A DNA stretch of 64,000 bases from Yuukianura sp. NJ FZ-2021. Lineage: Eukaryota. Below the pieces are notes generated by a model. That model had not been told where the DNA came from and ran no database searches. It saw only the letters and a list, made by a program, of their open reading frames with translations. Of this stretch, positions 2,474 to 39,008 are shown piece by piece. Made by a program: the position numbers and the translations under genes. The stretch's first letter is position 1. Each line of letters begins with the position of its first letter. The stretch covers positions 1,364,001-1,428,000 of the forward strand of contig CM102286.1 of the NCBI GenBank assembly GCA_046563655.1, in the 5' to 3' direction.

Positions 2474-3137
2474 GGTCCATGCCAATACATCGAAAAAAAG
2501 ACATCGAAACGAAAGACATCGACACAAAAGACATCGACACGAAAGACATCGACAATAGAAACACATCGGCAATGAAACACATCGACAAAAAAGACATCGA
2601 CCAAAAAGACATCGACAATAGAAACACATCGACACAAAAGACATCGACAATGAAAACACATTGACACAAGGGACATAATCCGTATAATTAAATAAGCAAG
2701 GAAGTTTACGTAACCTAAGTGAAAAAAACACTAGTAAAATTTTGAAAAGTCCACCTAAGCCAGACCTAACAAGTGACCCTACCGACGTAATCACTATGGC
2801 GTGCTTTACCAAACCTAACGCCGCGCCTTCGGCGCGGTACCGCAAGCTAAGCTAGCCATACGTCATCAGTATTGCCAGACATATTTTTTTTTCAAAATTT
2901 GAAGAATACGCAATTTCATTTCCTGGTATAAAAAATAAAATTTCTGTCGATGTCTTTTGTGTCGATGTGTTTCGTTGTCGACGTATTTCTATTGTCGATG
3001 TCTTTTTGGTCGATGTCTTTTTTGTCGATGTGTTTCATTGTCGATGTATTTCTATTGTCGATGTCTTTTGGGTCGATGTCTTTCGTGTCGATGTCTTTTG
3101 TGTCGATGTCTTTTTTTCGATGTAATGGCGTGCTTCG
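2474..3137. mobile_element. Mutator-like foldback MITE nested in the HINE
   Basis: Long inverted arms built from GACATCGACACAAAA-type units (2478-2670 vs 2944-3132). Flanking 9-10 bp direct repeat AGGCAATTG(G) at 2465-2474 and 3138-3147. ACCTAAC motifs in the spacer. Confidence 0.8.
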
Positions 3138-3220
3138 AGGCAATTGGCATGGGACTTGGTTCTCTGCTTAGCAAAAAATCTATTACGCAGTTGACATAAC
3201 ACTTTACACACTCATGCACT

Positions 3221-3480
3221 GTGTCCACCGGGTGTCACCTGTCACCTGTTGATTGCCGGGTGTCACCTGTCACCTGCCGGGTGTCAGTTGTCACCTGTCA
3301 CCTGCCGGGTGTCAGTTGTCACCTGTTAATTGCCGGGTGTCACCTGTTACATACCGGGTGTCACCTGTCACTTGCCGGGTGTCACCTGTCACCTGTCACG
3401 TGCCGCGTGTCACCTGTCACCCTCAAGTGTCACTTGCCGGGTGTCACCTGTCACGCCTCAGCTGTCACGTCTCACCTGTC
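3221..3480 (+). repeat. Central tandem repeat of the HINE (about 21-bp unit TGCCGGGTGTCACCTGTCACC)
   Basis: Repeated TGTCACC heptamers within a ~21-bp higher-order unit; explains the spurious ORFs at 3221-3707. Confidence 0.9.
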
Positions 3481-4526
3481 AAAACCCCCTGGGGGCGGGA
3501 AACTGGGGGGAACACACCCCCACTACTCCGGGGGGGGGGCGGGAAAGTGGGGGAAACAAACCCCCTTCGGGGGGCCTATTGCTTCGCTATTATCAGTATG
3601 GGCGGTTTACAACCGGTTTATTTAAGTTCAACAATTGGATTTCAAAATTTCAACCTTCTCTACAGTATATGGTCCGTAGCGTGACACCAATATTCTTGAC
3701 TTCTTAACTTATGTTAAAAAAGACGAAAAATATTTTTTGAAATGCCTTAGCATGATTTTCTTTTAGATTGGTCACGTAGATCTACTTCTGGAAGGGCACT
3801 GAGGCATGCCACCATGCCAGGGATTGGTTAAATCGTTCCCTTCCACAACGTCTTGTTGATCTTTATCTCAGACGAAGACAAACAACAGACATTTTTTGGT
3901 GGACTTTTTTTTTCTGAATTTTTCATTGTTTTTATTTTGAATCGAACCAATAGTGTGTCACTGTGTTTCATTCCATGAGCGTTTAACCTTGAAAATCTAG
4001 GTCACATTTTGTGAATGTTTATGAATTTTTAGTTCTCTACTCTACATTCAACCAATTTTGTAACTGGAGCGCTAACTTTGAAGAAAACGTTATGACCCCT
4101 AGCATAGTAGGTGTTTTTTGAAATTGAAAAACCGTTTAACCGTTGCGAACTGCAACATCGTTGTTCGTTGCTTTATTTTTTGTAAAAAAAAATTTAGGCA
4201 CAAATCCTTTTGAAGAAATGCGACGTAGAAGCTTTTAATTTTTCAACATTATAATTTTACTCTAATTTCTAACATCATAATTTGTTTTTTATGTATTGAA
4301 TAACACGACTCCTGGTCAATGGAACGTAACTGAAACTTAATCTAATCTTCGTTTATCAACGTATTTTGAGATTTTACAGTGATGTAAAAAGTCGACGGAG
4401 GTCACAGCAGTGAGGACAGAGGAACCATATGGTCGTTACACAACCACGGTGTACCAGTCCTCATCTCTTGATTCTCATAACATCGATCATTCGTGGGAGA
4501 TCAATCGAATACTTTGCCATATTGCA

Positions 4527-7364: not shown

Positions 7365-7917
7365 AGTAGTGACTCAAACAGGACCAAGGCAACAACAGTG
7401 ACAAAGTGAAGAAATGCAAAAAAAATCTCCGAAGTATCAAGTTTAACGCAAGTAATTCCAAATACATGCGGTTTGCGGTACTAAAAAGCCTTACCTGATT
7501 CAAAGAAGACCATCGTACAAATTCACGTGATCCTTTAGATTTATGAGCCCAAATTATTATCTTGGTGGAACTCCGACGTTTTGATAAATTTTTACATTTA
7601 AAATTCGGAATCGCTGTGAAGTTAATTATGTAAATGTTATTCCGATAGTAAAAAATATTTATTTTGTTATTTAATTTAATTTATATGCTTTTATGTTTTA
7701 ATTTTTTTTTCAACCTCTCATAGCACTGCTTCTAAGTTTCAATTTGGTAGTGTTCGTGAAGATTTTGCGTTGGACGATGATGTGAGTACCAAGAGAAGAC
7801 CGGTACCAAGTACCAAGAACGTTTTATAACAAAAAATAACCAAATTGTGAATTCAGAATCAATAGAGATTGTAAAATTTTGAAATTTTTGTAGTTCGACC
7901 ACAAATGGTGGTTCACA

Positions 7918-8453
7918 ATGTCGTGGCTAAGCCATCCAGTCTCTGGCTTTCTTCTAGATATTTCCGGAGTTTTGAAAAACGGTGACACTCCTATTGACGG
8001 ATCGATTGAGGTCATAGAGAAGTACGTTTTTCATTTTTCAAAACTGACACTTTTACCATAACTTCCAAAATTAATGTTTGTGTTATTTTAGGTTAAATAC
8101 AATTGGCATTCCGTACCGACTGCTGACAAATGAAACGCAACTTTCGAAACGATTGATCTTTGAGCAATTAGTTCATATGGGGTATCCAATTCCATCGGCC
8201 AATTTCGTTTTATCTCCAGCTCCAGCACTTGCTAAATATCTCACCAAGAATGACCTTCGACCTCAATTGTTGGTGCATGGAGTAAGTTATGTTTTCCAAA
8301 CAAAAATTTTGTTGTTCAACCTTTCTTAAATTGGTTCTGTTATTTAGCTGCTCGAAGACTTTGAACAAGTCTAGAACAAATACAGAAGGATCCAAATTGT
8401 CTGGTCGTCGGCGATGCAATTGATAACTTTACTTATGAAAATATGAACAAATT
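7918..8453 (+). pseudogene. LHPP: 3'-truncated duplicate of LHPP (exons 1-2 and part of exon 3)
   Basis: Near-identical to 19741-20273 including introns. Carries small indels (end of exon 2; extra bases near 8370-8382) and breaks off after YENMNK. Confidence 0.9.
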
Positions 8454-8807
8454 TTTTTACTACTACTCACATTAATACAAAATTTTTCATGCATCAACGA
8501 TGAAACAGTAAGTCTGCCTCCAAAGATTCCGTTGCAAAAAGTATTTCAAACTAGTGCCTGAGAAATGTTAGAAAAAATTTCCGGAATTCACAAATATTTT
8601 GAAAATAATTCTCTTCAATGATTTTTACGGTTTCTGCTGCCACCACAAAATTGAGACTCAGTAAGCACATCGCCGAGGTCACTGTGGCACTCCGCGTTTG
8701 AATTGAATTGAAGTTGTGACCTTTGACATTCTTTCCAGATGACTGGGCAAAATACTTTCCAGTAAAACAGCATATCCAGCTCATCGGAATGGCCATCATT
8801 CATGACC

Positions 8808-10420
8808 AACTACACCAACGCCGTTTTTCCAAGTATATTATTTAACCAGTAATGTTTTACATGGGAATGGCCACAGTTGACACCGCAACTCGGCGACGTG
8901 TGAGTCATCCGTGACACTGGGTGACATGCGCGACATTTTTTGGAAACATACGTTTAAAAAACTTAATCATTCCCTGATAAATTTTGTTTAAGCATCAGAT
9001 AAGACAAAAAATACACCACAGCTCAAATTGATGAGGGGAGACGTGTTCGGAATGTTAAACAGTTCATATTTAACTGTCAAATTGTAAAAATAGAGTAGCA
9101 TTAAGGTCTATAAACCTTTGTTCCAGTTTTTGTAAAAATTGACGTGGCAGAAATTCGTGCAACGTGGCTAACGTTTATTTGTAGTTTATTAGTAGTTTAT
9201 TATTAGTAGATTAATTTTAGCGTAGTAGGATATTTGTTCATAAACATTCTAAATTAACTTTCTTAGAACGTGCTGCTGATTTGTTTAAACTTGAATTTTT
9301 TGATGAAGTATGCCTACTTAAAGTCTCATTTAGCGTTGTCTCGCATTTTTATTTTGGAAAATGTGCTTTCTAAATAGTAATTTTTTATGTTCTAGTTTCA
9401 GTAGAATTAAAGCTACGCTTTACACCTATACGCTTGCACGACGAAGGTGCAATTAGACTCCTTATTGAATTGAATTGATTTATTTGACATAAGGCGCGCC
9501 CCAAGCAACATGGTAAAATAAGGGGATGTGTTAGGTAAAAGGTAAAAGTAAGGTAAAAGTGCGGAACATCGGTAGCGACGCGATCCAGATCCAGTTCCGC
9601 CAATGTGTCAATGCTTCTAATTTTTTTGTAAATCCAGCTCGCATTTATGCAAAACTAACCGTCGAAGTGTAAAACCATTATGAAATCATTGTAAAGTCAT
9701 TATGAGACAACTACACCAACGCTGTTTTTCCTAGTATATTATTTAACCAGTAAGCTTTTACATGGGAATGGCCACAGTTGACACCGCAACTCGGCGACCT
9801 CTGAGTCATCCGTGACATTGGGTGACATGCGTGACATTTTTTTGAAACACTCGTTTAAAAAAATTTAATCATTTCGAAATAATGTTGTTCGAAAATCAGG
9901 TAAAACAGAAAATACACCACAGGTCGAAATTGATGGGGGGAGACGTGTTCGGAATGTTAAACAGTTCATATTTAACTGTCAAATTGTAAAAATAGAGTAG
10001 CATTAAGGTCTATAAACCTTTGTACCAATTTCTGTAGAAATTGACGTGGCAGAAATTCGTGCAACGTGGCTAACGTTTATTTGTAGTTTATTAGTAGTTT
10101 ATTATTAGTAGATTAATTTTAGCGTAGTAGGATATTTATAAAAAACGTTCATAAACATTCTCAATTAACTTTCTTAGAACGTGCTGCTGATTTGTTTAAA
10201 CTTGAATTTTTTGATGAAGTATGCCTACTTAAGGTCTCATTTAGCGTTGTCTCGCATTTTTATTTTGGAAAAGCTGCTTTCTAAATAGTATTTTTTTTAT
10301 TTTCTAGTTTCAGTAGAATTAAAGCTACACTTTACACCTATACGCTTGCACGACGAAGGTGCAATTAGACTCCTTATTGAATTGAATTGATTTATTTGAT
10401 ATAAGGCGCGCCCCAAGCAA
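8808..10420 (+). repeat. Direct duplication of a ~700-bp segment (8808-9508 and 9708-10420)
   Basis: Both copies run from CAACTACACCAACGC to AAGGCGCGCCCCAAGCAA with scattered substitutions and indels. Confidence 0.9.
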
Positions 10421-10513
10421 GGGGCGCGAGAGAGCAGCTTTTGGAGAGAAGCCTCATGCGTCCACTCTAGTTAAAAGAAAAAAAACCGGAATCACCTTGA
10501 CAACTCGATGCCC

Positions 10514-10600
10514 AGTGCGCGGTTCCCAGTACTGGGTGGGCGGTTCCCAGTACTCGGTGTGCGGTTCCCAGTACTCGGTGCGCGGTTCCGAGTACTCGGT
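10514..10600 (+). repeat. 21-bp tandem repeat, about 4 copies (GTGCGCGGTTCCCAGTACTCG)
   Basis: Directly visible; probably the internal array of a non-autonomous element. Confidence 0.85.
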
Positions 10601-11203
10601 TTTTTGTCTTCAAAACTTCATTTCGTGCCAATTTTTTTATAAAGCGAAAAAGATGGCGATAAAAAAGATTTTTGCAGTTTTTTAGAACTTTTTTGGACTT
10701 TTTAGGTTTATCTTTTAGAATTAAAGATCTTATACGACTTTTTCTGGAACTGTATTTTCCGGACCTGGGTTATCATGTATGCAAAAATGAAAAACCCGGA
10801 TTGCTAATAGGAAGCACCATAGTTACTGTTCCGCAACCCCGCATAGTACATCAATTGACCCCGAGACTGAGGTCATTGCAAACATTGGCGAATTTTAGGA
10901 TAAACGCTGTTTCGTCCTTAAATAACTGTTTGGCTTTAATAAAACTCAGTTCATCAGCAAAAGTGATTCTGGAACAAATTCCAATAAACGTCATTTCGGA
11001 AAACTTCGGGTCCTTTAAAAAAAATTTCAAACGAGAAATTCTTCAACCATCCTATTGCTCTCTTAAAAAATAAGTTTCCATGCTAATGATTCACATATTT
11101 CATCGGCTGAAGCGTGTTTTAGAATTGAAATTACATAGCTCGACCTCAAAATATCAGTACAACTAAGCATTAACAGTCTCTGGGTTTTAAACTTAAGACT
11201 TAA

Positions 11204-11209
11204 TATAAA
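11204..11209 (+). promoter_or_regulatory. Candidate TATA box of the cysteine-rich gene
   Basis: TATAAA about 70 bp upstream of the inferred split start codon at 11275. Confidence 0.45.
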
Positions 11210-11274
11210 TACACCAAGTTTTAACAATCTTCGACGTTGACTCTCAACGGTGCACTCCGATAATCTCCTTCATC

Positions 11275-14200
11275 ATGTAAGTATAACTTTATAAAATTGC
11301 TGATTCTTGAATTCACACTTCATAATATAATTTGCATTATCAAAGTTCTTATTAGAAACATGATTTTTTCCCTGGGATTGATTTCATAGTTTATTGAATT
11401 ATGAAAAACTTTTAAAGGTATTTCGCAGAGTTCAAATATTGCCTATTTGGACTCACGTTGATGTGTAGCACTATCCTCACTGTGACCTCTGGCGAGAAAG
11501 TACATCAGCCAACTGGACTCTGTTATTCCGTAAGAAACGAAGTTTTTGTCGATGTACTAGTGTAAGTATTTTGCTGCACCAGAATGACATTTCCTTCTTC
11601 TTTTTTCTAAAACATCCCTTTCTATCAGATTAACATTTGCAAAGTTGCAACACGTTTTTCCTAATATTGCGGTTTGAAAGAATGACTTTGTCGCATTTAA
11701 GTGTGTAAGAAATGTTTGGGAAACATATGAGGTAATCTTATAAGAGGCAAACGCACCAAGAGATAAAAAGAGATTAAACAGTTTACTGTACCAGCACCAG
11801 CTCAGCACCTCCAGGTCTGTTCGCCTATTTTTGAAAAATTGAGAAAACAGAAATTGAGAAATTGAGAATCAGAGGAATCAGAATTTGAGGAAAAAGAAAT
11901 CAGAAATTGAATATTCCGTAACTCACAGTCAAGGTTGCTATAGCAACCAATCTACAAATAGTCTACAAGAGGTTATCCCATAGAGTTACCAAGCCGACTT
12001 GATTTTTTTTCTTTTAACTAGAGTGGACATAAGGCATTTTTTCAACAAAATTTTTGAAGCAAATTAAAAGAGGTTAAAAGAGGTAAAAAACCGCTTTCAT
12101 CCGAAGTTTAAGCAAGGTTCACACAAAAAATGAAATTTAGAATTTCAATCTTCATTTGAATTTATGAATAAAATTACGAAAAGCAGGGGTTTTGAGACAA
12201 AATATCCGCCCATATCTGTCACGATACAACTGGTGACTAGTAGTATGTCTTCGGAGAATTGAGGATGATCAGCATGGACGAACACACTTTTGAGTCTTCC
12301 CACGTGCTTACTTTGCTTTGCTTGGTCATTAGACAATACTGTAAGATTAGGTTTCATTCCATTGCCAGACAGGAAACCATTAAGCTAAACCCAACTACTA
12401 TTCGTAACACTTGTAACAAAACTGTAATTTTCAGAGGTCAGTAGTGTTAGATTCAGAGTATTTCCAATTTTCCAATTTAAACTCTGCTGTAAAATAAAAT
12501 CTCCCTTAATTCCAAATAGTTTCAAGTACTTAAACACAGCTAAAGTAAATTTAAACGTTAAATTAACTAATCTATAGTTACTATCTACGTCCACACCACT
12601 ACTAGTAGCATTTTCCAGAATCACAGATTAGGGTTGAAAGTTTTTCTGAAAAACAAAACCCTAGATTTAACTTTTTCAGTAATTCGCGAAAATTTTTAAA
12701 TGACACCTGCAATCCATAGTTTGTGTGTACCTGGCTTAAACTTAAGATGAAAACGGTTTTTTTTCCGCTTTGTAAATGCTTCAAAAATTTTGTTGAAAAA
12801 ATGCCTTATGTCCACTCTAGTTAAAGGAAAAAAAATCGAATCGTCATGGTAACTCTATGGGTTATCCAGTAGTTCGGGGCAAGGTAACTAAACATAAATA
12901 CACACGCTCTTTCTAAGGTAGTCTCACGAGCGGTTTTTTCAGCTATTTTTGCGATATTTTTTGGTGGGGCGGATTGTTTGTTTTTTAAACATTCCTCTGA
13001 CAACGTTTTCCTTCGGTCGGAGTACAAAATCAAATTCCTCCATTGTGACCATCCAGTGTACCCAATCATCGTGCTAGTGGTTTACATTGATTTTAGGATT
13101 GGAAAATGGAGTAAACAAATTTTACGCTTATAATTACTACAAATTCAATGCAACTCAATGACAAGTAGTTGATTTGCGTAAAATACTGAACGCTGGGTAC
13201 AACTAATACATCATTGTTACCTCAACCAACCTTTGCACGAATTTTATACAGTTTTATTTCCTTGGAAACCGAACAATCCGCCCCACCAAAAAATATCGCA
13301 AAAATAGCTGAAAAATCCGCTCGTGAGACTACCTTAGAAAGCGCGTGTGTACTTATGTTTAGTTACCTTGGTTCGGGGTTTGCAAAAATCTTCCTTCAAA
13401 CAATTTTTCCCCCAATTTTCCCCCAATTCCTATTAAATTACATACAAATCATTACCATAGAAAGGCACGGCGACGCAAGTTTTGAAAATTATTTGAGAAA
13501 ATTAAAAACATCGACTTAATGGATAACCTGGTGTAGAATAAACAATTTGTTTTTTTTTTTGTTTACCCACCTTGCTCACAGTAGTAATGACATCACCGAG
13601 GGGAAAAAATTATTGTTTATTTTTATCGACTGTATTTAGTAGTAGTATTCTATTAACCTTGAATTCGAACCAATATATAAAAAACTAACTCTTTTTTTGA
13701 ATCTCCAATTCTTTTTAAACTAAAGCATTTGCATTGTGCAATTAAATAATTCATTTGATTATACAGTGCAAAAGTGAATCCGACTGTAAACGAAAACTTT
13801 CGGAAAGCCAATATGGGTTTGCATGCGAGGACTCCGATCCCTTTTGCAACAAGGGACGTACCGGTTCCCCTGACAGCTACATTGAAAGCATTTATAACGC
13901 CTTTAAAGAAAATGCTACCAATTTTAACGAAGGATGCTGCTATTGCAAAACGGTAAGTTTGGGACACATTCAGCTTAATGTTCGTCTAAAAACGCAAGAC
14001 AGTTTGTTTATCTAAATTTTCACTGATTTCTTACTTGTTGCCATACGTTACTGAAATGTTGAACACAATCTGCGCTACATCGTTTGTACATGCGCAACCC
14101 AACCAGCGCCGAAAAATTCAAAAATATTCAATTTTGAGAATAAATAAACTGTCTTGCGTTTTTAGACGAACATTAATCCGTTTTTATTGGAAATGTTGGT

Positions 14201-17200
14201 GACAAGGTATGCAAATAGTTTCCCTAGTAACTTTAACGTTCCTTTTGAATTTAAAGGCTACGGCGTAAATTCGACAAAGGATTGCCTAAAAACGATTCGG
14301 ATATCATACTGTAATTGACGACCACTCCGTATGTCCCAATGTTAACAGCATGACCATGCAAACTATATGTGCAAAAAACTCTCTCTGCTTGGAAGAGTGG
14401 AACGATCCTGGGGTGTCCCTTTAACATTGCTTCTCCAAGCACAGACTTCCACAAATTCCATCTCAACTGAGAAACCAAAAAAAAAGGTGGGGGGGGGGGG
14501 TCTGGGGGGGCTTGCCCCCCCCCCAGCCTTTACAATACATTTTCGATTCAACTAGACGGAACCCGTGATGTTTACACATCACGAAATTACCTTTAAGCAC
14601 TAGGTCATACCTCGGGTCAAACGAAAAAGCTAGCGGATTTTTGACACAATGTTCAAAATCATCCTTCCTTCATGTCAAAAATCCACTAGCTTTTTCGTTT
14701 GACCCGAGGTATGACCTAGTGTTTAAAGGTAATTTCGTGATGTGTAAACATCACGGGTTCCGTCTAGTGATTTTAACTTTGCATTGCTTAAAATGAGTCT
14801 CAACAGTTGTGTAACAATTCAAATTCTGACTAACCACATAAAGTTTATTTCCACAAGCCATCGGGCTTTGGGTCAGAATATATAAAATATGGGACCTTGA
14901 AACAACATTCTCAAACGATTTGTGATTAGGGGTGTGTCTAACTCAACTGTGCAACGGATTAGACTCAGCGGTTTTGATAAATAATGATATCAGTTGGGTT
15001 AATATGGAAGAGATTACAACATATGCAATTAATTCAATTCGAAAGTAAAGTAATCACCTGTTTTAATTGAAGATACTTATTCATTGCCGCGTTTTGAAAA
15101 TAGGACCAACAAAAAATTAAAAAGTTCGCAGGTTAAAATGTTTGCACACCTTAACGACTATTGTTTAGTCAAAATTTCCATTAGCTTTGAGTCACCTCAC
15201 CTCGTAACTTCTATTCTGCTTACTGTTTGGAATAACTTATTAATAATAACTTATTATTTATTTGCCGTTCTAGTGTGATCAGCATTGTAAGAAGGGGTGC
15301 GCTGCCCCCGCCGTTGATCTTTGTGGTCATGAGACGAGGCGCGAGTGTAAGTGCGCTCAAAACCCAGTAAGTAAACAACAATTCCTACATAAATTTTCCT
15401 ATTAGGGTTACATATTTGATTAGAAATAATGCTGTGCACTTGATCTTAGTGTTCTGCACATACAGACTGCAAGGGACGTTGTACTCTCAAGACCAACAAA
15501 GTGTATTGCAAAGGCGGCAAATGTAGTTGCGTAGACAAAGGCTACGTAAGTAAAAAAAAATTGTTCTCGTTTTTCGATTCTCAATGGCATGTAACCAATG
15601 GATCACTATTATTGCAAACAGTGTGAACATACACACGAATGTGGAAACTATTGTCACGGGAAGGGTAAGTATACCGTTTGCAACGTGTTCAAAAGATGCC
15701 TCTGCACGGACGACGTCAGACACGTAAGTTTCAGCATACATAAGAAATGTTTTATAAATATATTATTAATTAACCATTATAACTATAAAGTCAAGCGACT
15801 TTTGGGAGATACATGTGGCGATTGTTACTTTTCCTTTAAATCCTATATTGAGCCGTTGTTTTACGACGTTTGACGTTTGCTTATGGTTGCATTTTGTTAC
15901 CGCAAAATACTACAAAGCATAACGGGTCGCAATTGAAATTCAGAATGAGACAGGATGGGCGGGACAAGGCGTGCGAATTTCGTGCCCATATTCTATTCCA
16001 TCTTCTTTTTCATCCTCAGCACAAACAATGAGTCAGGGAAAGTTGTTGTTGTGGTTTATGGGTAAAGTAAAATCGGTGCCCGAAAAGTACCAGTTGAGAC
16101 ATTCTGGCAGACGTCTGCTGTTTCGAAACGTGGAATTGACAAAACCGGAAGTCAGATCATTTTAAACTGGAAGGGGTGCCACTTTCTACAATCTGCTGCA
16201 TCATCAAAATGCACGGAAAAGATTTGAACAGGAACCCGCAGTTCTGGGAGAATCCCGGTCATAATGACTCCTGATGAAAGGTAAAATGGTAGTCCGAAGG
16301 AAAATGGTGAAAGATACGTAATCATAATAAATTTTAAGCGGTGAATACGGATAATTGAGCCACGTAATTTAGAAATAATTCTAACCTGGAATAACTTGGC
16401 TCTCAAGTTTGTACGCATTTCGAGTTACCAACCAGAACCACACGTTAGACATTTTTCTAAATTAGCATGTAAGGGTAACCATTCGTTTGTGATTTGTTTG
16501 CACAGGGTGAAAAAAATACCTTATATGGTATTCGGGTATTTATGTAAACGCCGTACAACATATTGCCATATTTATTATATATTAATATACCCAGTGGGTG
16601 TGATACAGACCAAATATTTACTAATTTCATTTTTGTTGATCACAAAGTTAATACTACGAATCTCTTTCCTCTTCAGTGCTCAACTGACCAAGAATGTAAA
16701 GACAGAAGAGCAACATTTACAGACCACCCTCAGGCAAAATGTACAATTATAAGCAGGGCTTGCTGTCTCTACGACGTAAATGCCACAATTGGTTCTAAGT
16801 GACAAGGGCCCATCCACTAAGGGCTAATACAAAAAAAAGGTCCTCCTAAATCAGCGTCGCTAATGTTAAATAAGCTTAGCCTTACCTAACCAAATAACCT
16901 TAACATGATAACTCGAAGCATTAATCTGAAATATTCTAACCACACCCTAACCAAACCTAACCATAACCATTGCCAAACATAATGATAAGCTTAAATCAAC
17001 CTATGGTGTAATTAAGACTAAACTTAACCTGGTCCAATTGAGCCTAACCTGGTTTAGCCAAGCCTAACTAACGAGGAGAGGTTTTCAGTTGTTTCTCCAG
17101 AGAACATTCTTACACCAGTTTCGTGTCATAACATCAAGAAAAAGTTAAATCGACATAGCGTCGAACACCAGCCGAGTATACATGTTATAAAAACAACGAA

Positions 17201-17999
17201 AATTATTCAAAGATAACCATTCCTCATAACAGGCAACTAAACGATAAAGCATATAATTTTAGCGTTTATGCTATCGCTTGAAAATTGGGAAAAACTTTTT
17301 TGAACCTATATCGCGTAACCGTGGTTCGAATCAACCTGGGGTAACCTTATTTTTTCGGGTTGAACTAGTGTCCAAATTTTTCTTTAATTATAACAAATTT
17401 TTGGGAATTGTCCCATCATTTATTTTGAGGAACGGCTGAAAACCTCTCCTCGTAAGTTAGATCTAACTAAGTTAGATCAACAAATCTTGAATCGATTCAA
17501 GATTTGTTGCGTAAAATTAGCGCTTATTGGAATATTGGCCTTTATTTTTTTTAGCTCTTGCTGAAAATACCCATTATTGAATTGGTCCTTATAGGTTTGG
17601 CCCTTGTGACCTGCGACGACCACAATTTATTTTAAGTTATACTGATTGTGTTGATTATTTTAAATACTGTATTGATTTCAAAAAAGGATGCTGTCTATCA
17701 CCGAGGAATTGGCTCATGTGGATGTATTAGAGTTGAGGAGTGTCCCAAAAAGCAGCTTATAAGCTAGCCGAATCACCGATTGGGTGTAAAATTGTCAGTT
17801 AAAAATTTGTTTATTTCTTTGCTACTAATCACCCCTTCGGGTCCAAAGCCCATGGGATGGGAGTTCGAGTGATTTAATTGTAAGCAATGTTTTTTGTTTG
17901 TTACAGTGTGGAGGAGTACAGAAGAGGTGTTGGAGCAGATCGGAAAATTGTCATGTATTTAAAGTTATGACTTTGATTTGGTTTAATAGTTACCTTTAA
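11275..17999 (+). CDS. Secreted multi-module cysteine-rich protein with CS-alpha-beta (defensin/scorpion short toxin)-like modules
   Basis: Exons 11275-11276 (AT), 11418-11529 (G + signal peptide YFAEFKYCLFGLTLMCSTILTVTSG), 13767-13952, 15274-15366, 15450-15545, 15622-15723, 16677-16775 and 17907-17999 splice GT-AG into one open ~260-aa frame. The last six exons all begin AG|TGY in phase 0. AATAAA near 18021. The exact exon set is uncertain. Confidence 0.7.
11971..12867. repeat. Inverted repeat with ~90-bp arms (11971-12061 / 12777-12867)
   Basis: TTAACTAGAGTGGACATAAGGCATTTTTTCAACAAAATTTTTGAAGCA and its reverse complement, with similarity extending outward. A related partial copy lies at ~10460-10510. 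Confidence 0.8.
12880..13370. mobile_element. MITE with ~100-bp TIRs and 8-bp TSD (P-element/hAT-type termini CAAGG)
   Basis: TIR CAAGGTAACTAAACATAA... / ...TTATGTTTAGTTACCTTG; perfect TSD GTTCGGGG at 12872-12879 and 13371-13378. Confidence 0.9.
13975..14176. mobile_element. TTAA-bounded MITE in an intron
   Basis: Inverted repeat TTAATGTTCGTCTAAAACGCAAGACAGTTT / AAACTGTCTTGCGTTTTTAGACGAACATTAA. Confidence 0.75.
14549..14769. mobile_element. Near-perfect palindromic MITE with CACTA-like ends (CMC superfamily)
   Basis: Arms of about 96 bp with few mismatches and a short spacer. Right end CCGTCTAGTG (CACTAG on the - strand), left end CAACTAGACGG; ATT on both sides. Confidence 0.8.
16798..17612. 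mobile_element. Degenerate Mutator-like MITE
   Basis: Imperfect TIRs GTGACAAGGGCCCATCCACTAAGGGC / GGTCCTTATAGGTTTGGCCCTTGTGAC; internal ACCTAAC repeats. Confidence 0.55.
17072..17452. mobile_element. Mariner-like MITE nested in the preceding element
   Basis: TIR CGAGGAGAGGTTTTCAG / CTGAAAACCTCTCCTCG; TA on the right flank, AA on the left. Confidence 0.65.
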
Positions 18000-18306
18000 G
18001 GTCAAAAGAAAGTAAATTAAAATAAAGGAACTCGTAGATTATGCCTAGGCCGCGCGTGTGTTTAGCACTTCTTGTTGTCTACACGTCACTATTGTACGCT
18101 TGTGTCGTTGTTCTTTGCGTGCATTGGAGATGACCTGGAAGTTGATGTACAGCAGAAGAATGAGGGTGGTCGTCATCATCACATGCTAAGAAGGCGCAGA
18201 CTACAGCAAACTTTAAAGTAGAGGTGGCCAAATAATAATTTTAGATGTAAAATTGTAAGTTTTAAATGTAAAATTTTGAATCTAAAATTTGAAGTCGTCA
18301 ATTTAC

Positions 18307-18873: not shown

Positions 18874-19740
18874 AGACACTCGCAAAATTCCACGTAGAAA
18901 TTTTTGTTTCAACGTCGCTCAAATTTGATTCCTTGGTCATGAAAGTTTTTATGAGAAATAAGGTTTGCACCACGGTATACCCAGAATTGTACAACTGTTT
19001 TCAAAATTTGGTTTATTCCGTTTGTTTTAAGGTGGAAGTTTATCTAATCTCATGCCCGTGCCAAAACCCAATCATCAACTTAACAAGTACTCGTGAAAGG
19101 TTAGCGACACCTAAACGTAACACACGTTATTGTTTAAAATTGGTAACATAAAAACAATGAAACGAGGTTTACACATAAAATAACGAATTTCAGTTGACCT
19201 TAGATGACTTGTAAATTTTTTTGAACGCTTAACCTTGAGCTCCATTTAACCTACACACCTACAGTTCATGTCGCTATTTCCCAGAAGCTTCGATTTAAGT
19301 TCGTGTATACATATTAGTGCTTCAGCTTCTAAACCTTAGAGTTTGAACTTCCGAAACTCGAACCATTTTCCTGGGTTCGAAATTCGAAGTCGAGCCAAAA
19401 GAGTTGGGAACTTACATGGCCGTATTAGCAAAATATCCAGCAATGTATGGACTTCAACTGAAATTGTTGTATTTCGATAGTAAATAATATTTTGTTATTT
19501 AATTTAGTTTATATGCTTTTATGTTTTAATTTTTTTTTCAACCTCCCATAGCACTGCTTTTAAGTTTCAATTTGATACTGCTCGTGAAGATTTTGCGTTG
19601 GACGATGATGTGAGTACCAAGACCGGTAGCGGTAAGTCAAAAGTTTTATAACAAAAAATAACCAAATTGTGAATTCAGATTCAGAATCAATAGAGATTGT
19701 AAAGAAATTTTTGCAGTTCGACCACGAATTGTGGTTCAGA

Positions 19741-20757
19741 ATGTCGTGGCTAAGCCATCCAGTTTCTGGCTTTCTTCTAGATATTTCCGGAGTTTTGAAA
19801 AACGGTGACACTCCTATTGAGGGATCGATTGAGGTCATAGAGAAGTAAGTTTTCATTTTTCAAAATTGATACTTTTACCATAACTTCCAAAATTAGTGTT
19901 TGTGTTGTTTTAGGTTAAATACAATTGGCATTCCGTACCGACTGCTGACAAATGAAACGCAACTTTCGAAACGATTGATCTTTGAGCATTTAGTTCATAT
20001 GGGGTTTCCAATTCCATCGGCCAATTTCGTTTTATCTCCAGCTCCAGCACTTGCTAAACATCTCACCAAGAATGACCTTCGACCTCAATTGTTGGTGCAT
20101 GATAAAGTAAGTTATGTTTTCCAAACAAAAATTTTGTTGTTCAACCTTCAAATTCTTAAATTGTTTCTGTTATTTAGCTGCTCGAAGACTTTGAACAAGT
20201 GGAACAGAAGGATCCAAATTGTCTGGTTGTCGGCGATGCAATGGATAACTTTACTTATGAAAATATGAACAAATCTTTTCGTTTTCTCATGGACGATTCG
20301 AATACAAAGTTTTTCAGTATGGGAAAAGGAAAGTTCTATCAAGAAGATGATCAACTGAAGTTGGATTTTGGAGCATTTGTAGTTGGGCTTGAGTATGCTA
20401 CGGATAGGAAAGCAACGATTTTTGGAAAACCGTCTTTAGATTTCTTTGATGCAGCAGTGCAGGATATGGGCATACCAAAGGAAAACGTAAGTTGATCGTA
20501 AATGATTCTACTAAAACTGAAATTTTGAAATGTTGGCTATATTTCAGGTTGTGATGATTGGCGATGACATCTTCGGTGACATTGGAGGAGCTCAAGCAGC
20601 TAGTATTCGTGGAGTGTTGGTGAAAACAGGAAAGTACCGTGATGGTGATGAAGTGAAACACGGAATTTGTCCAGACGGTGTAGTTGAAAACCTCAAAGAT
20701 GCTATAGAACAATGCTGGCCAGTGGTTTCGATGAATTCGAAATCACAAAGGATGTAA
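19741..20757 (+). CDS. LHPP: Phospholysine phosphohistidine inorganic pyrophosphate phosphatase (HAD IIA), 4 exons
   Basis: Motif I LLDISGVL (LHPP type rather than HDHD2 DLSGTL), LTNETQ, GKPS, VMIGDDIFGDIGGAQ, VKTGKYR. Confidence 0.9.
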
Positions 20758-20922: not shown

Positions 20923-22293
20923 TCAGTGAGAAGAAGAAGAAGAGGATCTCTCGTAGCGTCGTTTCCTTTGAGGTGGTGGTGATCGACGAACGCGTGCTGC
21001 TGGCGGAGAAGCACGACGTCTGTCTCGCAATGGAGAGCGATTTCGAGGTGGTGACCAACCTAAGGCATGGTTTCAACGTTTTAATTCGCAATTCAGTAAT
21101 AAACACTTATTAAGTTGAAAGTTATTACCACGACGGCCTCCACCTCCGAATCCTCCGCGACGACGCGGTGGGCTTCGACGCATTCCCCTGGGGTTAAAAT
21201 TTTGTCGCATCGGAGGACGATTGGCTGTCATCATGTGAAGTACAGGTGCTGCTGTAATTTCCTGTCCACAAGAAACGCACTCATGATCTTGTGATACTGA
21301 AGATTCATACAACAAATTACGTACAAAACATCAGATCAATGGATCAGTCAATACCTGTCCATCAATTTGTCCACCGTCCATGTGTTTCATAGCGTTCTCT
21401 GCTTCTTCTGGTGTTGAAAATTCAATGTAAGCCAAATTGGATCCTCCGTGCATAGTATCTTGTGGATTGGTAACATTCTAGGAGAGGAAAAAGTAGTTTC
21501 AGTTCAGCATATTCTTCCTCAGTGGAACGGAATTAACTTACCTTGATCGTTCCAAAACAACTAAAAATCTCATGAAGATGGTCCTTTGTTACGTTTCTCG
21601 TCAACCTTCCAACATGGATCTTCACCGGCTTTGGAGTGGGACTCCTTTCTTTCCTGGCTGTTTACCAAACAAAACGGTTTATTACAAAATAGAATGACAA
21701 TGCAAAATCATAGGAGGTGTACAGATTTGCGTTCCGAACCTCTGCGTGGAGAACGAGATGTACGACGACGAGGAGACCGAGACTTGGATTTAGAAGACCT
21801 CCGCCTTCTTCGATCTTCACTTCGACCTCCAGCAGGCGACGTCCTTGGAGATCGTGCTTTTCTGCCTCCTGACCTGGATCTTGATTTGCCTTTAGGAGAA
21901 CGAGATCGTGCCTTCAATGGAGAACGTCCACGTCCCGCTACTCTCGGAGACCGTGACCTGCTTTTTCCTTTGGGTTTGGGACTTCGACTTTTGGCTTTAT
22001 CTAGCGATGGTTTTACGTCTCGCTTATCGACTCGTTCTCTTCCACGTCGTGGCTGCGGACTTGCTGCTGAGCTTGATGAAGAAGAAGACGAAGACGAGGA
22101 ACTAGAAGAAGAGCCTGAAGACGAAGAAGAAGAAGAACTAGACGATGATGAGCTTGAAGAACTGGAAGCTCGACGTTTCCTGTCCTCTGCCTTGTTATTT
22201 GGTTTTGCCCTAAAATACAGTTAATGATTAGTCACAACGTTCATCCTTGTTTTCAGCAACTATGCATGTAAATTACGCGTGTTAAGCTTACAT
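20923..22293 (-). CDS. RNPS1: RNA-binding protein with serine-rich domain 1 (ASAP/EJC component)
   Basis: Split start AT|G (intron 22291-22210), poly-Ser, RS region, RRM KIHVGRLTRNVTKDHLHEIF...KHMDGGQIDGQEITA, R/P-rich tail; TGA at 20925-20923. Confidence 0.93.
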
Positions 22294-33118: not shown

Positions 33119-34129
33119 AATGAATGACCTTGTGACCTACAGCTATTATTTTGTGCATTTTGCATTTAAACCCGCACTTGAATCCTAAAATGTAGTTTTA
33201 CAAATTAAAATGCAGGAAAGGCGTGCCAAATTTTTACAACGCATGGACAGTGATAAGAATGAAACCTAAAATGCAGTTCAAAGTTAAGTTATTTATAATT
33301 GAATAATAATTAGTTGAATAATTAATAATTAGTTAGTTTCGATATGTAAAAATATAAGTTTTTAAGTAATTGAGTTTATTTTAACTCAATCAGTTGCATA
33401 ATAGTATTAGTAAAGTAAGTGACAAAATAGGTGACATATTCTTTACATTAAGCACAAAACGGAATTAGGAAACTAAGCATCCGTGTCGCCCGCAACCACA
33501 GCTCTGAAAAAAAGCAAAAGCATAGGAATTAGGAAGAAGGGAAAAGCAAAAATTAAACATAAAGCAAGGAATTGTATTGAAACTGAATAAAATTTAGTAA
33601 TAAAAACGTAAATTAGCACAACATAAGATAGCGTTGTAGGTCATTAACGCAAAAAAATATAGCAAGTTGACAACAGTGCAACTGAATTGGGGGTCGGTTA
33701 GATTTAAAAGGCAGTGTTAGATTTCATTGGTAAGTAGGGTCAGTTCTGCCAACTTGTCGAATTCGCGCTTATTGTTTTCGCTCTTATGACCTGGAACCCC
33801 AAACAACAGCAATAAAGAACTAAAATACAAATATCAAGAAATTAACACACTTTGTTACTTTTTGAGACAAAAACCTGAAAATATTTTGAAAAGTAGAGCA
33901 AAAGTTGAACTCTCTGTTCAATTGATTTCTAATTTACACACAAAAGGAGGCATTTGTTATGGCCACTTTCACTTCTGTGGTCATTCACTCCAGCATTTTC
34001 ACCGGCATCATAAAAGTTTGTTTCCATGCAAAAAAGTCGTTGAAAAGAGAAACAAGTGGAAACGGAAACAAAAAGAAACACAAACCCAAAAACCCAGAAG
34101 AAATCGAAAGTCAAAATTCAAGTCACATT

Positions 34130-34143
34130 ATTCTCTTGGCAAC
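34130..34143. promoter_or_regulatory. RFX X-box upstream of ARMC9
   Basis: ATTCTC-TT-GGCAAC fits the X-box consensus, about 170 bp upstream of the ATG. Confidence 0.55.
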
Positions 34144-34314
34144 GCTTGACCAGAAAACTACAAAGTTACAAAAAACAACACAAAGTATCTCTGAAATCTG
34201 CTGTTTTTTCGTATTGAACCGGTCGGTCCAAAAAATTCTGTAAATTTTTGGAAGTTCCTCGAAAAGTCTCCAATTTGAACTTCCACACAATTTGAGCACA
34301 ACTAAAAAGATAAA

Positions 34315-37300
34315 ATGGCGTCCACGTCGCCTTCGCTGTCTCCGACTGGACCAAATTCAGGACAACGCAACTCGTCCATCTTCTCTGAGCTGAATGGGCT
34401 CGTTTACGAGGTAAAACTTGTTCTAAATTTTTTTAAACAAGCTGTTCTAACAATTGAAAACACATTTTTGTTCTAAACAGTACCTGAACATCACTGGAAT
34501 GACCAAAACCATGGCCTCATTTCAAACAGAATGTCATGACAAGTCTTTGCCGTGTGCTCCAAAGGAAGCCCTTGCCAAGTCAACTTTTACTCAGGCCGAC
34601 TCCAACCAACTTTTGGAAAGTTTTGACACCGGTGACATGTCAACTTTCATACAGGTACAAGAATACCATCAAAATTTTAAAAATTCAAAAATTCGAACCA
34701 AAATTATATAAAAAAACACCAAATTTTTTAGAAATGGACCCTGTTCCTGTCTCACATTCACATTACGAGTGACGACATGAAAAAACTGGAAGTGTACCTT
34801 TACGTTTACTTTGGACTTTGGCCAAGAGCCAACAATCTTGCAGAAGATCGACAGGTCAAGGCCATGGCCACACTCAAAGCCTATTTTGAAGAAAATTCAG
34901 CCGAACTTTCAAAAGATTCTACGATTCTGCCGCTCTTTGCTCTGCCCTTCATCCATGACCCCAAGCAACATCCAGTCTTCCAGGAACTTATGGAGGTCAT
35001 ATGATCATAATTAAAAAAAAAGTCACAAGTTTTCAAATTTTCGAAATTTTGATTTCCACTTTCAGGAAGTTTGGAGTGAGAGACTCCGGACCCAGTTGGA
35101 AGCTACACTTCTGAAGTACTTTGAACTTCTCCAAGAAAATATTGGGCACCATTCGAAACTTGCCGCGGTGGTACTGCGAGCACAGCACGGATCCAAGAAA
35201 TCTTTTGGACCAATCGACGCTACTATTCAGTACCACCAAGACAGATTTTTCCAACTCATGACAACATATCGCAAAGTACGCAAACTCCTGCGTGGAACCC
35301 GCGAAAGCTACGGAAAACTGCTGAGTAAGCTACAAAATCCTACAATTTTGCAAAATTCAAACAAAGTTTCTCGAAATTTTCAGAAACAAACAATTTTCCT
35401 ACTTTTTTTGCAGAGGTTTCAAACGAAATGGTTACCGGCCTAGAGGAAGCTGTGAATGGAACAGTAGACAGTCTGGAACCGACTATGCAAAAATGCTATG
35501 CCATTTTCCCTGAACTTTTTACACCAGATCTTCCTTCGAACGTAACTTTTCGCAATTTTTCTAAAAGTGTTCAAATTTTTGAAATTTTAAAACTGTTAGG
35601 GAAAACCGGACAAAGAATATTTCAAAAAATTAGCCGGAGCAGCCATTTTCAACAACATTTTGGATTCAGACGTGAGCCTGTTTTTCATTGGAATCTCGGA
35701 CTTGGGCCCTGAATCTCTCAACTATCCGAAAATCAAAGAAACTTTGGTTTCGGACCAAGTCAGCCAATCACAGAAACTTTGTTTACTGCAATCACTACGT
35801 TGGGTAAAAACATAACTTCAAAAAAAAAGTTTTTCCAAAAAGTCGAAAATTCAAAATCAAGAACCAAAATTTTCATTTTTAAAGCTCCTAACCAAGACTT
35901 TTCCAAAATGCCGTGAATATGCCATGGAAGCTTTCACCGGTGCTGATCTGCTTGGACTCAATGCAAAAACGAAGGAATATCGGAACAAGCTCTTCGCTTG
36001 CATGGTTACCCAAACGCCGACGTACATGAAAGAGGTACAAAATTTAAAAAAAAAATCCCATTTTTTTAAAATGTAGTTTTTGTGTTCTAAGTTTAACTTT
36101 TTCTATAAAAAGTGTTTCGCCCGTCTCCTAAATTCCTTTGCTTCAATCAAAATCGGACGTTCGTATCTTGCCAGTAGTACGCACACTCTGGACGTTTTGG
36201 TCACAGCGCTCGTGACATGCAAAAGTGACAACGAATCCTACATTTGTCAAATGATCATCGCCACGCTCCAGAAATTAAGCTTGAGGTAAAAATTCCAAAT
36301 TACAAAACATTTTTTTTTAAACTGGCACTTTTTCTAAAATTTTGAAGAAAGGAGATGCGACTGGGCATGATTGAGCGGAAAGTGATTCAGTGGTTGGCAG
36401 TGTACCTGAAGGCAGAACTGGCAAAGAAACAAGTACCATCGTCAGCGGACAATGGAAACAACATGGAAGTGAGCTACAATCCGTACTTGATGGAATACGG
36501 TTGGGCACTTCTCATGAATCTCTGTCTCCACGAAGAAGCCAAACCAGCATCAGCAGCCTTCGCAACGGATATTCTCACTTCAGTCGTCCAAATGCTCTTT
36601 GCTAAACCGACTCCAGACGTAAAGTTTCTCAAAATTTATGAAAGCATATAAACTTTAACAACTTTCATAAAATTTCAAAAATTTTGCCTCAGGTTGCCCC
36701 ATACGTCGTCAGCACTTTGTACAGCCTACTCCGGAATCCAGAAGTTTTCAACATTGCCAAGAGAATGTGCCTCCATGATACACTCACCCAAATTGTTGGA
36801 AACGTAAGTCCCACAAAATTTCTAAAATTTTGAAAAACTTTTGAAAACTACCTCAAAGTTTCAAAAACCTTTTTTTGTTGCTAAATCAGAGCAAGACTGA
36901 AATGGCTCATCACTTACGGAAACTCATCGAGGTGCTGAGCACAAAAGGACATGACCGGATCACGACTACTGGAGAAGTGGACTATGACGATGATGACAAC
37001 GTACTAAAACATGGTCAACTTAAATGTTAACCTAACGTTATTTAAACTAACGAAAACCTAACTTTAGGCTGATCCAGAAGAATTTGAACCTGAACTGGAA
37101 GTTAGCGAATGCTGGACAGCATCGCTGGACGCCGGAAGCCACATTGGAGACGACCTGCTCGTACGAGAGTATCTGCTTCACCGTGAACTCGTTCTTCCTG
37201 AAACTCCGCAGCAAAAGTACCAAAACATTCTAAAAACTTTGAAACAATAATTTTTTTTTAAAATTCGAAATTTTTTAGAAACCAAATTCAATCCGTCCAT

Positions 37301-37915
37301 ACGCGGCCCACCACTCCGAAGAGCTTCTCCCTTGCCGCGCAAAGTCCAATCACTCAATGTCAACCAGTTAAATCTTCCCGCCACGTCCCCACTCCTTCGC
37401 GTCGTGAAAGTCTGTCCAAGAAGCCTTTCAATACAAGTGCTGAACGGTTTGCTACTGCGCAGAGCAAACGGAACGACAATTCGAAACGGAAAGTTCAAAA
37501 TTCTGAAACGTCTAAACCGGCTTTCCCTCCAAAACCTGCCAGTCCAATTCCATCTCAAGCAGGACCGTCATCTAACACTGCTGTCAGTGGCGGAACCGGA
37601 CTCAAATCAAAATTGAAATCCACCGGCAGCAATGAAATCGGAGTCAAAAAAGTTCAAAAAACTCCGCCAACGCGTTTTGAACAGCCCGCCGTGACCCTGC
37701 CTCCGCTTGGTCCAGAGAAACAAAACGTTTACTACAATGGGTCTGTACTTATGAACCTCGTCAAAGGAAACTACAAAAACTTTGACGCTCAAATGTTCAC
37801 TGATGACATTTTTGCTAGCGTCCCACCACCGCCCCACCAAATTTTGGACTCTGAGCAAAATCAACAAGCCAACAACTTTGCACCTCCGTCTACCAATCAG
37901 AACACGGCGTCCTAA
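34315..37915 (+). CDS. ARMC9: LisH-domain armadillo protein ARMC9 (ciliary)
   Basis: N-terminal LisH (SELNGLVYEYL...TMASFQTEC), KLEVYLYVYF, LPLFALPFIHDPKQHPVFQEL, LLQSLRW, ARLLNSFAS..GRSYL, ATLQKLSLR, YLMEYGWALLMNLCL; multi-exon; low-complexity C-terminus. Confidence 0.88.
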
Positions 37916-39008
37916 ACTTCTCTCCACCAATCAGAATACGGCGTCGTAAACTTCCATCCACCAATCACAATACGGCGTCTTACACACTTCAAAAAACAAA
38001 CCGCGAAAGAGATTTTAAATTTTAGCGGCAAGAAGATTTCAAAATTCCAAAATTCAATATTTCTATCCCACTTTAACATAAACTGTATAAAACTAAACCA
38101 AAATTTCACATTTGCAGAATTTGTGACTGAAGGCGAATTTATTATACTTTTACAAATTCGAAAAAAAAAATCAAAATTTTTAAGTTGTGCTTGCTGCTGA
38201 TTTTGTGCTAGAGTTTTGAACGCTAAAGCTTGAGCGAAAATTTTTGCTTCCAGAGCAGTTTTCTACTAAAATTTCTGTTAAAATTCTGCTAAACAAAAAA
38301 TTCAGTTTTAGCTAAATATAAAATCTGTTTACATTTTTAAAATCTAGAATAGACTGTTTCTAATTATCTCTAGTTTTCATCAACTAAATACATTGTACTA
38401 TTTTTTTTTAAATTAAAATTCCATAAGTTAAAGCCATTATAGGGCACTTAAATTTTTCAAACAGTAAATTACAAGGCAACGACTAGAAGGTTTAGGAGCA
38501 GAAAAGCTTCAAGTGCTTTAAAAGCTTCCCGAGTATTTTGAGTATTCATCTGCAATGGAACTTTTCTCATAATTTTGAAGTGTCAAATAGTACAGCGTTT
38601 TAAAAAAAAAAGAAGTTTGTTTTAAGCTGCCATATGTATCACACCGTACATTTTAGTTCGAAATTCTTAAACTTTTAAATATTTTATAATTTAAAATTTG
38701 TCTTAAAAGCTTCTAAATTTTATATTTAGCTACACAAAAATATATTGTTTCATTAGTATGTTGTGTTCTCAAGTTCATATTAAGTGCATATAAGTTCATA
38801 ACTTTTCACATTGCCATATGTGAAACTATTTTCTAAAAAAAAATCTACCAAAAAACAAAAATTTCAAAACAAACAGCTAACTGCATTGCCCATAAAACTT
38901 TTCAAAATCTCACTCTGAGGTCTCACTTTTTTTTTCTCTAAAATTGAAAATCTCACAATTTTACCACAATTCATTTCTAAAGAGGCCTAAAACAACTTTA
39001 GTCGACTA

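Follow-up and report, generated by a model that had tools for sequence, protein, structure and literature searches.

A cysteine-rich gene of eight exons

We analysed a stretch of 64,000 nucleotides (nt) from Yuukianura sp. NJ FZ-2021 (assembly GCA_046563655.1, contig CM102286.1, positions 1,364,001 to 1,428,000 of the forward strand; called the window and numbered from its first letter), which at 11275-17999 probably contains a real protein-coding gene for a secreted protein built of several small cysteine-rich modules. As judged from the sequence the gene model is coherent, and expression is a prediction. Spliced together, the eight exons of the + strand, separated by seven GT-AG introns and inspected at every junction, yield a single frame of 783 nt that has 260 codons, 36 of them for Cys, and ends in TAA. 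The initial annotation had proposed that a split start codon, a signal-peptide exon and six further exons form a frame of about 260 amino acids (aa); all of these elements are present with canonical splice sites, and two coordinates that it had left out, the start of exon 2 (11418) and the last exon (17907-17999), complete the frame at 260 codons.

Exon 1 ends with the AT of the start codon (11275-11276, +), which is followed directly by a GTAAGT donor and has an A at position -3; without splicing the ATG runs straight into TAA. When the region 8500-11417 was scanned for ATG-started exons of the right phase, 11275-11276 alone had a strong donor. Exon 2 (11418-11529, +) supplies the G of the start codon, a signal-peptide-like N-terminus (approximately residues 1-26) and 12 further residues including one Cys. 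The six exons behind it each open with a Cys codon immediately after the AG acceptor and each encode one module: M1 (exon 3, 13767-13952, +, 62 aa with seven Cys, a diverged unit), M2 (exon 4, 15274-15366, +, 31 aa, six Cys), M3 (exon 5, 15450-15545, +, 32 aa, six Cys), M4 (exon 6, 15622-15723, +, 34 aa, six Cys), M5 (exon 7, 16677-16775, +, 33 aa, five Cys) and M6 (exon 8, 17907-17999, +, 30 aa, three Cys), the last having a strong acceptor, tttgtttgttacag, and ending in a hydrophobic tail and the stop TAA at 17997-17999. The internal module exons measure 186, 93, 96, 102 and 99 nt, all divisible by three and all in phase 0, and introns 1 to 7 are 141, 2237, 1321, 83, 76, 953 and 1131 nt long. 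A candidate TATA box, TATAAATA, is located at 11204-11211 (+), 64 nt upstream of the start codon; its promoter role is suggested by position only, and the same motif matches eight times in the window counting both strands, three times on the + strand. A candidate polyadenylation signal, AATAAA at 18021-18026 (+), follows 22 nt past the stop and is the first on the + strand after exon 7, the preceding + strand copy being located at 16326.

Several properties of the model were compared with chance. GTAAGT is the donor at five of the seven junctions versus 37 of 3587 (1.0%) of the + strand GT sites in the window, and the guanine plus cytosine (GC) content is 44.6% in the exons versus 35.8% in the introns. 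A codon-usage score, for which 1479 codons from the window's other genes served as the training set, favoured frame 0 in six of seven exons; the exons scored -0.04 to 0.22 and the introns -0.21 on average (standard deviation 0.165), and these values, 1-2.6 standard deviations above intron windows, give modest support to the gene. The cysteine-stabilised alpha-beta (CS-alpha-beta) pattern typical of defensins and short scorpion toxins, taken in the strict form C x4-7 C x3 C x6-12 C x3-6 C x C and searched in six frames of the whole 64-kb window, matched at 15450-15530 and 15622-15705 only and had 0 matches in 30 shuffled windows. Exons of the form AG/TGY.../GT with at least five Cys start at five places in the gene and at two elsewhere in the window, namely at 45288 (+) and in a low-complexity repeat near 2730 (-), and 20 shuffled windows contained zero to three such rows each. 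On neither strand of the gene region was another gene or a transposase detected, the comparison of ten open reading frames with Pfam yielding nothing at E<0.05.

Two alternative 3' ends were noted. One is a 26-codon exon with three Cys at 17687-17767 (+), preceded by a weak, A-rich acceptor; the other arises if the donor of exon 7 is read through (16776-16802, +), which leads to a stop at 16800-16802 after eight codons. Neither is near an AATAAA, there being none on the + strand between 16326 and 18021. Exon 8 itself has the lowest GC of all exons (0.34) and a slightly negative codon score.

Cysteine arrays and module boundaries

Residues 1-26 resemble a signal peptide and suggest that the protein is secreted: the Kyte-Doolittle mean over nine residues exceeds 1.5 for windows starting at residues 8-16, and the small residues T-S-G precede the predicted cut. 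The predicted mature part comprises 234 residues with 34 Cys, an even number, and has an isoelectric point (pI) of 8.4.

Published work describes the CS-alpha-beta fold as being completed by a cysteine-stabilised helix (CSH) motif, i.e. CxxxC plus CxC, together with two further Cys (PMC5116183). Such a six-Cys array is present in M3 (Cys gaps 5,3,8,4,1; net charge +5) and M4 (gaps 5,3,8,5,1), in agreement with the spacing C-x5-C-x3-C-x8-C-x4/5-C-x-C first read from these two exons; in M3 it is the canonical array with a short n-loop. M2, annotated as a six-Cys variant, has gaps of 3,3,7,7,1 and the same order of motifs, CxxxC...CxC. The exons 13767-13952 and 16677-16775 had been called more diverged, and indeed a CS-alpha-beta Cys array is absent from M1, M5 and M6. 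M1 has gaps of 5,12,6,29,0,1, a net charge of -2 and one N-x-T site. M5, with gaps of 5,14,6,0, is without the second Cys of CxxxC, and its spacing is also compatible with a beta-defensin array in which the third Cys is replaced; M6 carries a net charge of +3. Taken as units, the two ends of the chain contain eight Cys each, i.e. the exon 2 Cys plus the seven of M1, and the five of M5 plus the three of M6.

From the last Cys of one module to the first Cys of the next the linkers measure 2-6 residues, and all seven dibasic pairs of the protein are located inside modules, none in a linker. The residue before the fourth Cys (C4) is L, Y and V in M2, M3 and M4, respectively, so that the Lys typical of potassium-channel toxins is missing, as had been pointed out for the best modules. 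The full signature of these toxins, K-C4-X-N (PMC5004176), is likewise absent, the residues around C4 being L-C-G-H in M2, Y-C-K-G in M3 and V-C-N-V in M4. Neither at the DNA nor at the protein level did the modules show any likeness beyond their Cys and a short motif at the N-terminus; M3 and M5 are identical at 5 of their first 10 residues (50%). MAFFT alignments containing M2 placed its last three Cys wrongly and were left out of the analysis.

Predicted fold of M4

An AlphaFold2 model was generated for M4 alone, with M3 as its sole alignment partner. The model has a mean predicted local distance difference test (pLDDT) value of 79.6 and a predicted template modelling (pTM) score of 0.42, and DSSP assigns a helix to residues 4-7 and strands to residues 17-20 and 26-29. 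The two strands form a beta-hairpin that, in keeping with the CS-alpha-beta rule, has C4 on its first strand and C5-x-C6 on the other.

Comparison of the model with 48,161 Protein Data Bank (PDB) representatives by VIA-align, a method independent of Foldseek, gave ten chains with Z of at least 2, the top one having Z 2.6 and a root-mean-square deviation (rmsd) of 2.2 over 30 residues. Six of the ten are titled defensin, drosomycin, plectasin or scorpion-like, three have indecisive titles (two cystine-dense peptides and Dg3b), and one is Ah-AMP1, a plant defensin; none is titled as another fold. Foldseek against the PDB returned 11 rows at E<=10, ten of which are scorpion K-toxins, plant or insect defensins or peptides of that kind. 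Their query-based TM-scores (TMq) range from 0.37 to 0.62, with eight of ten at 0.49 or higher, and all have E values of at least 3; upon realignment the best reached Z 2.8 with an rmsd of 1.7 over 29 residues. Over all single-domain neighbours the rmsd is 1.7-2.8 over 27-32 residues. In contrast, comparison of the M4 model with viral structures produced partial, unrelated rows only (TMq 0.25-0.47). The folds EGF, WAP, knottin and EB appear neither in Pfam nor, apart from one follistatin at Foldseek rank 11, among the structural neighbours of M4, a result that covers the M4 fold only.

The structural comparison that had been suggested for the modules thus gives M4 neighbours of the defensin and scorpion-toxin type, with low scores. 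The fold signal in this model would lie in the exclusivity of these neighbours, though the prediction may reflect no more than recognition of the Cys pattern by AlphaFold. M3 would share the fold by its near-identical spacing to M4, and M2 probably shares the scaffold; the disulfide pairing would then be C1-C4, C2-C5 and C3-C6.

Lineage and genomic surroundings

The window also holds ferroportin exons (4.9-6.4 kb), a leucine-rich repeat (LRR) gene, an fn3_4 gene and Src42A. For one Src42A exon the identity is 96% with the springtails Allacma fusca and Folsomia candida but 86-92% with insects, mites and shrimp, Lepidoptera having 86-90%. In another Src42A exon 92 of 95 residues agree with Allacma, 89 of 95 with Folsomia, 87 of 95 with Penaeus and 82 of 95 with Nilaparvata. 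By these identities the window would belong to an arthropod nearest to springtails and not to a lepidopteran.

The cysteine-rich gene is bracketed by a segmental duplication, the copies of which (7660-8457 and 19488-20279) are 93-97% identical and 11.82 kb apart. It contains the 5' part (Hydrolase_6) of a haloacid dehalogenase (HAD)-like hydrolase gene; the downstream copy runs into a Hydrolase_like exon at 20521-20757 and belongs to a full copy of the hydrolase gene, and the upstream copy appears truncated. Just upstream of the promoter region there is a tandem duplication of about 0.9 kb (8807-9508 and 9708-10420, 92-98% identical) with no recognisable coding content. Within the introns we found five inverted repeats resembling miniature inverted-repeat transposable elements (MITEs), at 11971-12867, 12880-13370, 13975-14176, 14551-14768 and 17064-17460, with arms of 37-109 nt that are 83-98% complementary, one of them being a near-perfect 96-nt palindrome with a 26-nt loop. 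In intron 3 a G run followed by a C run (approximately G10, TCT, G7, CTTG, C10; 14480-14530) adjoins the palindrome.

Other features are more distant from the gene. Minisatellite arrays with periods of 15, 21, 28 and 63 nt occupy 2487-3504, where block 2976-3132 repeats block 2478-2634 in inverted orientation (93%). An open frame on the - strand (21708-22220), in which Ser and Arg-Ser repeats abound and whose low complexity resembles that of serine/arginine-rich (SR) proteins, has no Pfam match. The region 34000-50000 shows strongly negative GC skew (-0.14 to -0.36), and its + strand contains several Ser/Thr/Pro-rich open frames with 0 Pfam matches. At 42496-42554 (+) a match of 33.8 bits to the Rfam transfer RNA (tRNA) model extends from position 6 to 65 of the 71 in the model, so that the acceptor stem lacks its ends, and ARAGORN finds no tRNA; this is probably a tRNA-derived repeat or pseudogene. 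Finally, the lone AG/TGY.../GTAAGT open exon at 45288-45434 (+) has six Cys without CS-alpha-beta spacing and may be part of a gene in the GC-skewed region, or a chance occurrence.

Comparison with known CS-alpha-beta proteins

Proteins with several CS-alpha-beta motifs have been described before. The lepidopteran X-tox proteins are 'defensin rosaries' with 3-11 CS-alpha-beta motifs (PMC2728511; PMC4558851; PMC3224240), the motifs being located on separate exons (PMC4558851). They are reported to be secreted after infection and to have spacers in which the sources describe no conserved cleavage sites (PMC2728511; PMC3224240), and Spod-11-tox is reported to be neither antimicrobial nor cut into defensins (PMC2728511). 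In the same way as described for Spod-11-tox and Gall-6-tox, the protein predicted here combines a signal peptide with imperfect tandem motifs, one per exon, and spacers without cleavage sites, and M3 and M4 also have the short n-loop and the K/R before the fifth Cys of X-tox. The published X-tox consensus C-x4-C-x3-C-x7-G-x-C-x3-K/R-C-x-C differs, however, from the gaps 5,3,8,4/5,1 of the present modules, which have no G-x-C, and in contrast to X-tox only two to three of the six Cys-rich exons are canonical. Sequence similarity between X-tox and the present gene was not detected, a search of 1.84 billion proteins giving no true match, and X-tox is reported only from Lepidoptera whereas the window is nearest to springtails. 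By consensus and by lineage the gene is not a member of the X-tox family.

The second group are nasonin-2 and nasonin-6 of Nasonia vitripennis, which have four to five short-n-loop CS-alpha-beta repeats (PMC2853521). In nasonin-6 each repeat is encoded by one exon, which has been read as exon duplication, and no protease signals are described (PMC2853521); nasonin-2 is up-regulated on infection (PMC3873987). Compared by published description, the gene in the window shares with them the short-n-loop repeats, the module per exon and the lack of processing signals. The nasonins are hymenopteran, though, and their repeats are described as resembling single-domain nasonins of the same genome. In addition, nasonin-1 and nasonin-2 are described with a phase-1 intron behind the signal peptide, whereas the introns here are in phase 0 except for the one that splits the start codon.

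Two-domain defensins are also known from fungi and plants (PMC5234102; PMC5700942), and MtDef5, which has two domains, acts intact and is reported to be more potent than its separated domains (PMC5700942). Like MtDef5 and Bizyarsin, the present protein would hold CS-alpha-beta domains in one secreted chain with short linkers, but those proteins belong to other kingdoms, and the MtDef5 domains are described as 84% identical whereas the modules here share their cysteines alone. Single-domain peptides, i.e. arthropod defensins, drosomycin, plectasin, plant defensins and short scorpion K-channel toxins, have the pattern C...CxxxC...C...CxC in common with the modules; they usually carry a G-x-C gamma-core and are recognised by Pfam, neither of which holds for the modules, and the K-C4-X-N of the short scorpion K-channel toxins (alpha-KTx) is not found in them.

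For springtails, a homology-based survey of five species reported classical defensins only in Sminthurus viridis (PMC10051947). The terms 'x-tox' and 'tandem' occur 0 times in the survey's main text, and its authors suspected that further peptides, without orthology to those already described, await discovery (PMC10051947). The suggestion in the initial annotation that a protein of this kind is possibly undescribed is thus not supported, as proteins of several CS-alpha-beta domains, each motif on an exon of its own and without processing sites (X-tox, nasonin-2/-6), and two-domain fungal and plant defensins, are already in print. The architecture is already described, and what is new is an orphan example outside Lepidoptera and Hymenoptera, from a non-insect hexapod.

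Discussion

The gene at 11275-17999 very probably encodes a secreted, multi-module CS-alpha-beta-like protein. The mature chain would be a string of small disulfide-braced modules, about 234 residues long with 34 Cys, in which every module has its own symmetric exon of phase 0. M3, M4 and probably M2 would adopt the CS-alpha-beta scaffold of cis-defensins and short scorpion toxins, and the N-terminal M1 unit and the C-terminal M5+M6 unit may be diverged eight-Cys derivatives of it. As the linkers of 2-6 residues are without dibasic sites, we infer that the chain is not cut into separate peptides and would work whole, in the manner of the 'defensin rosaries' X-tox and nasonin-2/-6. Such a chain might bind multivalently outside the cell as part of humoral or surface defence, in which the cationic modules M3 (+5) and M6 (+3) would be the most likely to touch anionic microbial or membrane targets. 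We lean, with some reserve, towards this function, i.e. an intact, multivalent, secreted chain of disulfide-braced modules in extracellular defence. The multi-domain, defensin- or toxin-like character proposed in the initial annotation thus stands, backed by the secreted Cys-rich multi-module model, the M3/M4 array and the neighbours of M4; the antimicrobial activity that it had added is not implied by the fold, and Spod-11-tox is reported not to be antimicrobial (PMC2728511).

A number of observations weigh against this reading. Concerning the gene model, the AT/G split of the start codon and exon 8 are predicted from sequence signals. Concerning the modules, the canonical array is found in only two of six Cys-rich exons, and M2-M4 lack the glycine of the GxC gamma-core, their C4 being preceded by D-L, V-Y and T-V, respectively. 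M3 and M4 are identical at just 3 of 26 non-Cys positions, and 6078 of 20,000 shuffles reach the observed score; moreover, a profile built from M3 and M4 recovers M3 and M4 only, not M1, M2, M5 or M6, from 2071 six-frame pieces of the window. Concerning the fold, the alignment under the M4 model contains two sequences, the five models have pLDDT values of 62-80, and the helix assigned by DSSP to residues 4-7 does not lie over the CxxxC at residues 7-11. In absolute terms the M4 model scores poorly (Z 2.0-2.8, with no Foldseek match at E<=0.001), as is inevitable for 34 residues. As to function, defence is argued by analogy, because X-tox itself has no known function, and kappa-B-like motifs match four times and twice in the window, which is chance level, and never near the gene.

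Searches for sequence relatives point in the same direction. In a Pfam-A scan at E<=10, in which the HMMER filters remove most rows above E of about 0.1, all six exons were without a match near the cut-off and without a row for any defensin or toxin family. The best relevant row was Nodulin_late for M3 (E 0.85, 10.5 bits versus a cut-off of 30.4), and no exon reached the gathering score of Toxin_2, Defensin_2, Gamma-thionin or Nodulin_late, the families against which a check had been proposed; a protease-inhibitor or structural Pfam family was not seen on any exon either. Six sequence searches of the PDB gave chance-level rows only (e.g. TPR designs, sarafotoxin, albicin and iRhom; E 0.17-4.7), with no match for M1 and M2. 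Against 1.84 billion representative proteins the M3+M4 profile had no true match at E<=0.001; two matches were rejected as they are tandem-repeat proteins in which 17 of the 34 profile positions are covered. By our own estimate, E 0.001 in a library of that size corresponds to about 40 bits for a profile of 34 positions, so that diverged single modules would escape the search. Src42A of the window had no 100% match, and the proteome of the species itself is thus apparently absent from the protein library. Comparison of M1 with longer proteins gave one candidate and none that was scored, and in metagenome contigs 122 and 242 stretches followed the pattern, none of which was confirmed.

Among the other explanations, the one that survives best is a real gene with a non-immune role, its product being a toxin-like ligand with two or more binding units, an inhibitor of proteases, or a secreted protein with a structural, adhesive or reproductive task, and some of its modules may have another fold. 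A six-Cys CS-alpha-beta sequence alone is said not to separate a toxin from an antimicrobial peptide (PMC5116183), and double-domain toxins are described as bivalent ligands (PMC5577568). The lack of a kappa-B-like site near the promoter and the modest overall charge, with a mature pI of 8.4, would fit such a role, and the M3+M4 profile misses M1, M2, M5 and M6. However, the K-C4-X-N signature of channel toxins (PMC5004176) is absent from M2-M4, no exon matches a Pfam family of protease inhibitors or structural proteins, and the known proteins with this architecture are immune-related or infection-induced (PMC2728511; PMC3873987). We regard a non-immune role as unlikely.

We consider it quite improbable that the protein is a polyprotein precursor cut between its modules to release separate defensin- or toxin-like peptides. 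Multi-copy precursors of antimicrobial peptides do exist in invertebrates, for example the mussel multi-MgCRP-I (PMC4558851), and the module charges of -2 to +5 are those that a mixed cargo would show. Release would, however, have to take place in linkers of 2-6 residues that contain none of the seven dibasic pairs; X-tox and nasonin-2/-6 are likewise described without processing signals, and Spod-11-tox is reported to yield no defensins (PMC2728511; PMC2853521). Furthermore, the odd Cys numbers of M1 (7), M5 (5) and M6 (3) require partners in neighbouring exons. The least probable explanation is an unexpressed or decaying locus, or exons misjoined, above all where the start codon is split and at exon 8. 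In its favour, no homologue was found in any library searched, two alternative 3' ends (the stop at 16800-16802 and the exon 17687-17767) exist, exon 8 is low in GC (0.34) with a slightly negative codon score, and the introns carry five inverted-repeat insertions. Against it, the eight exons are open, in phase and joined by strong canonical sites that shuffles do not reproduce, the acceptor of the alternative 3' exon is poor and A-rich, the + strand is without an AATAAA from 16326 to 18021, the modelled end yields an even Cys number, and 8500-11417 offers no other right-phase ATG exon with a strong donor.

For the intact, secreted chain that we favour, a further step is tentative and rather doubtful, namely that the 'defensin rosary' arose here for a third time in arthropods, independently and by exon duplication in a non-insect hexapod, and that the gene is a lineage-specific immune effector of the kind that homology searches miss. 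Since its cassettes are symmetric and in phase 0, alternative splicing could yield secreted CS-alpha-beta arrays of varied composition, i.e. a repertoire. Another independent rosary, the second or third, would not by itself answer what rosaries do, but would give comparative leverage on their function, that of X-tox included. Without detectable relatives, genes of this kind escape homology-based surveys of antimicrobial peptides in springtails. If expressed, the gene would be a case of a secreted tandem CS-alpha-beta protein with one module per exon beyond Lepidoptera and Hymenoptera, and would support the view that the CS-alpha-beta scaffold has been multimerised repeatedly via exon duplication.

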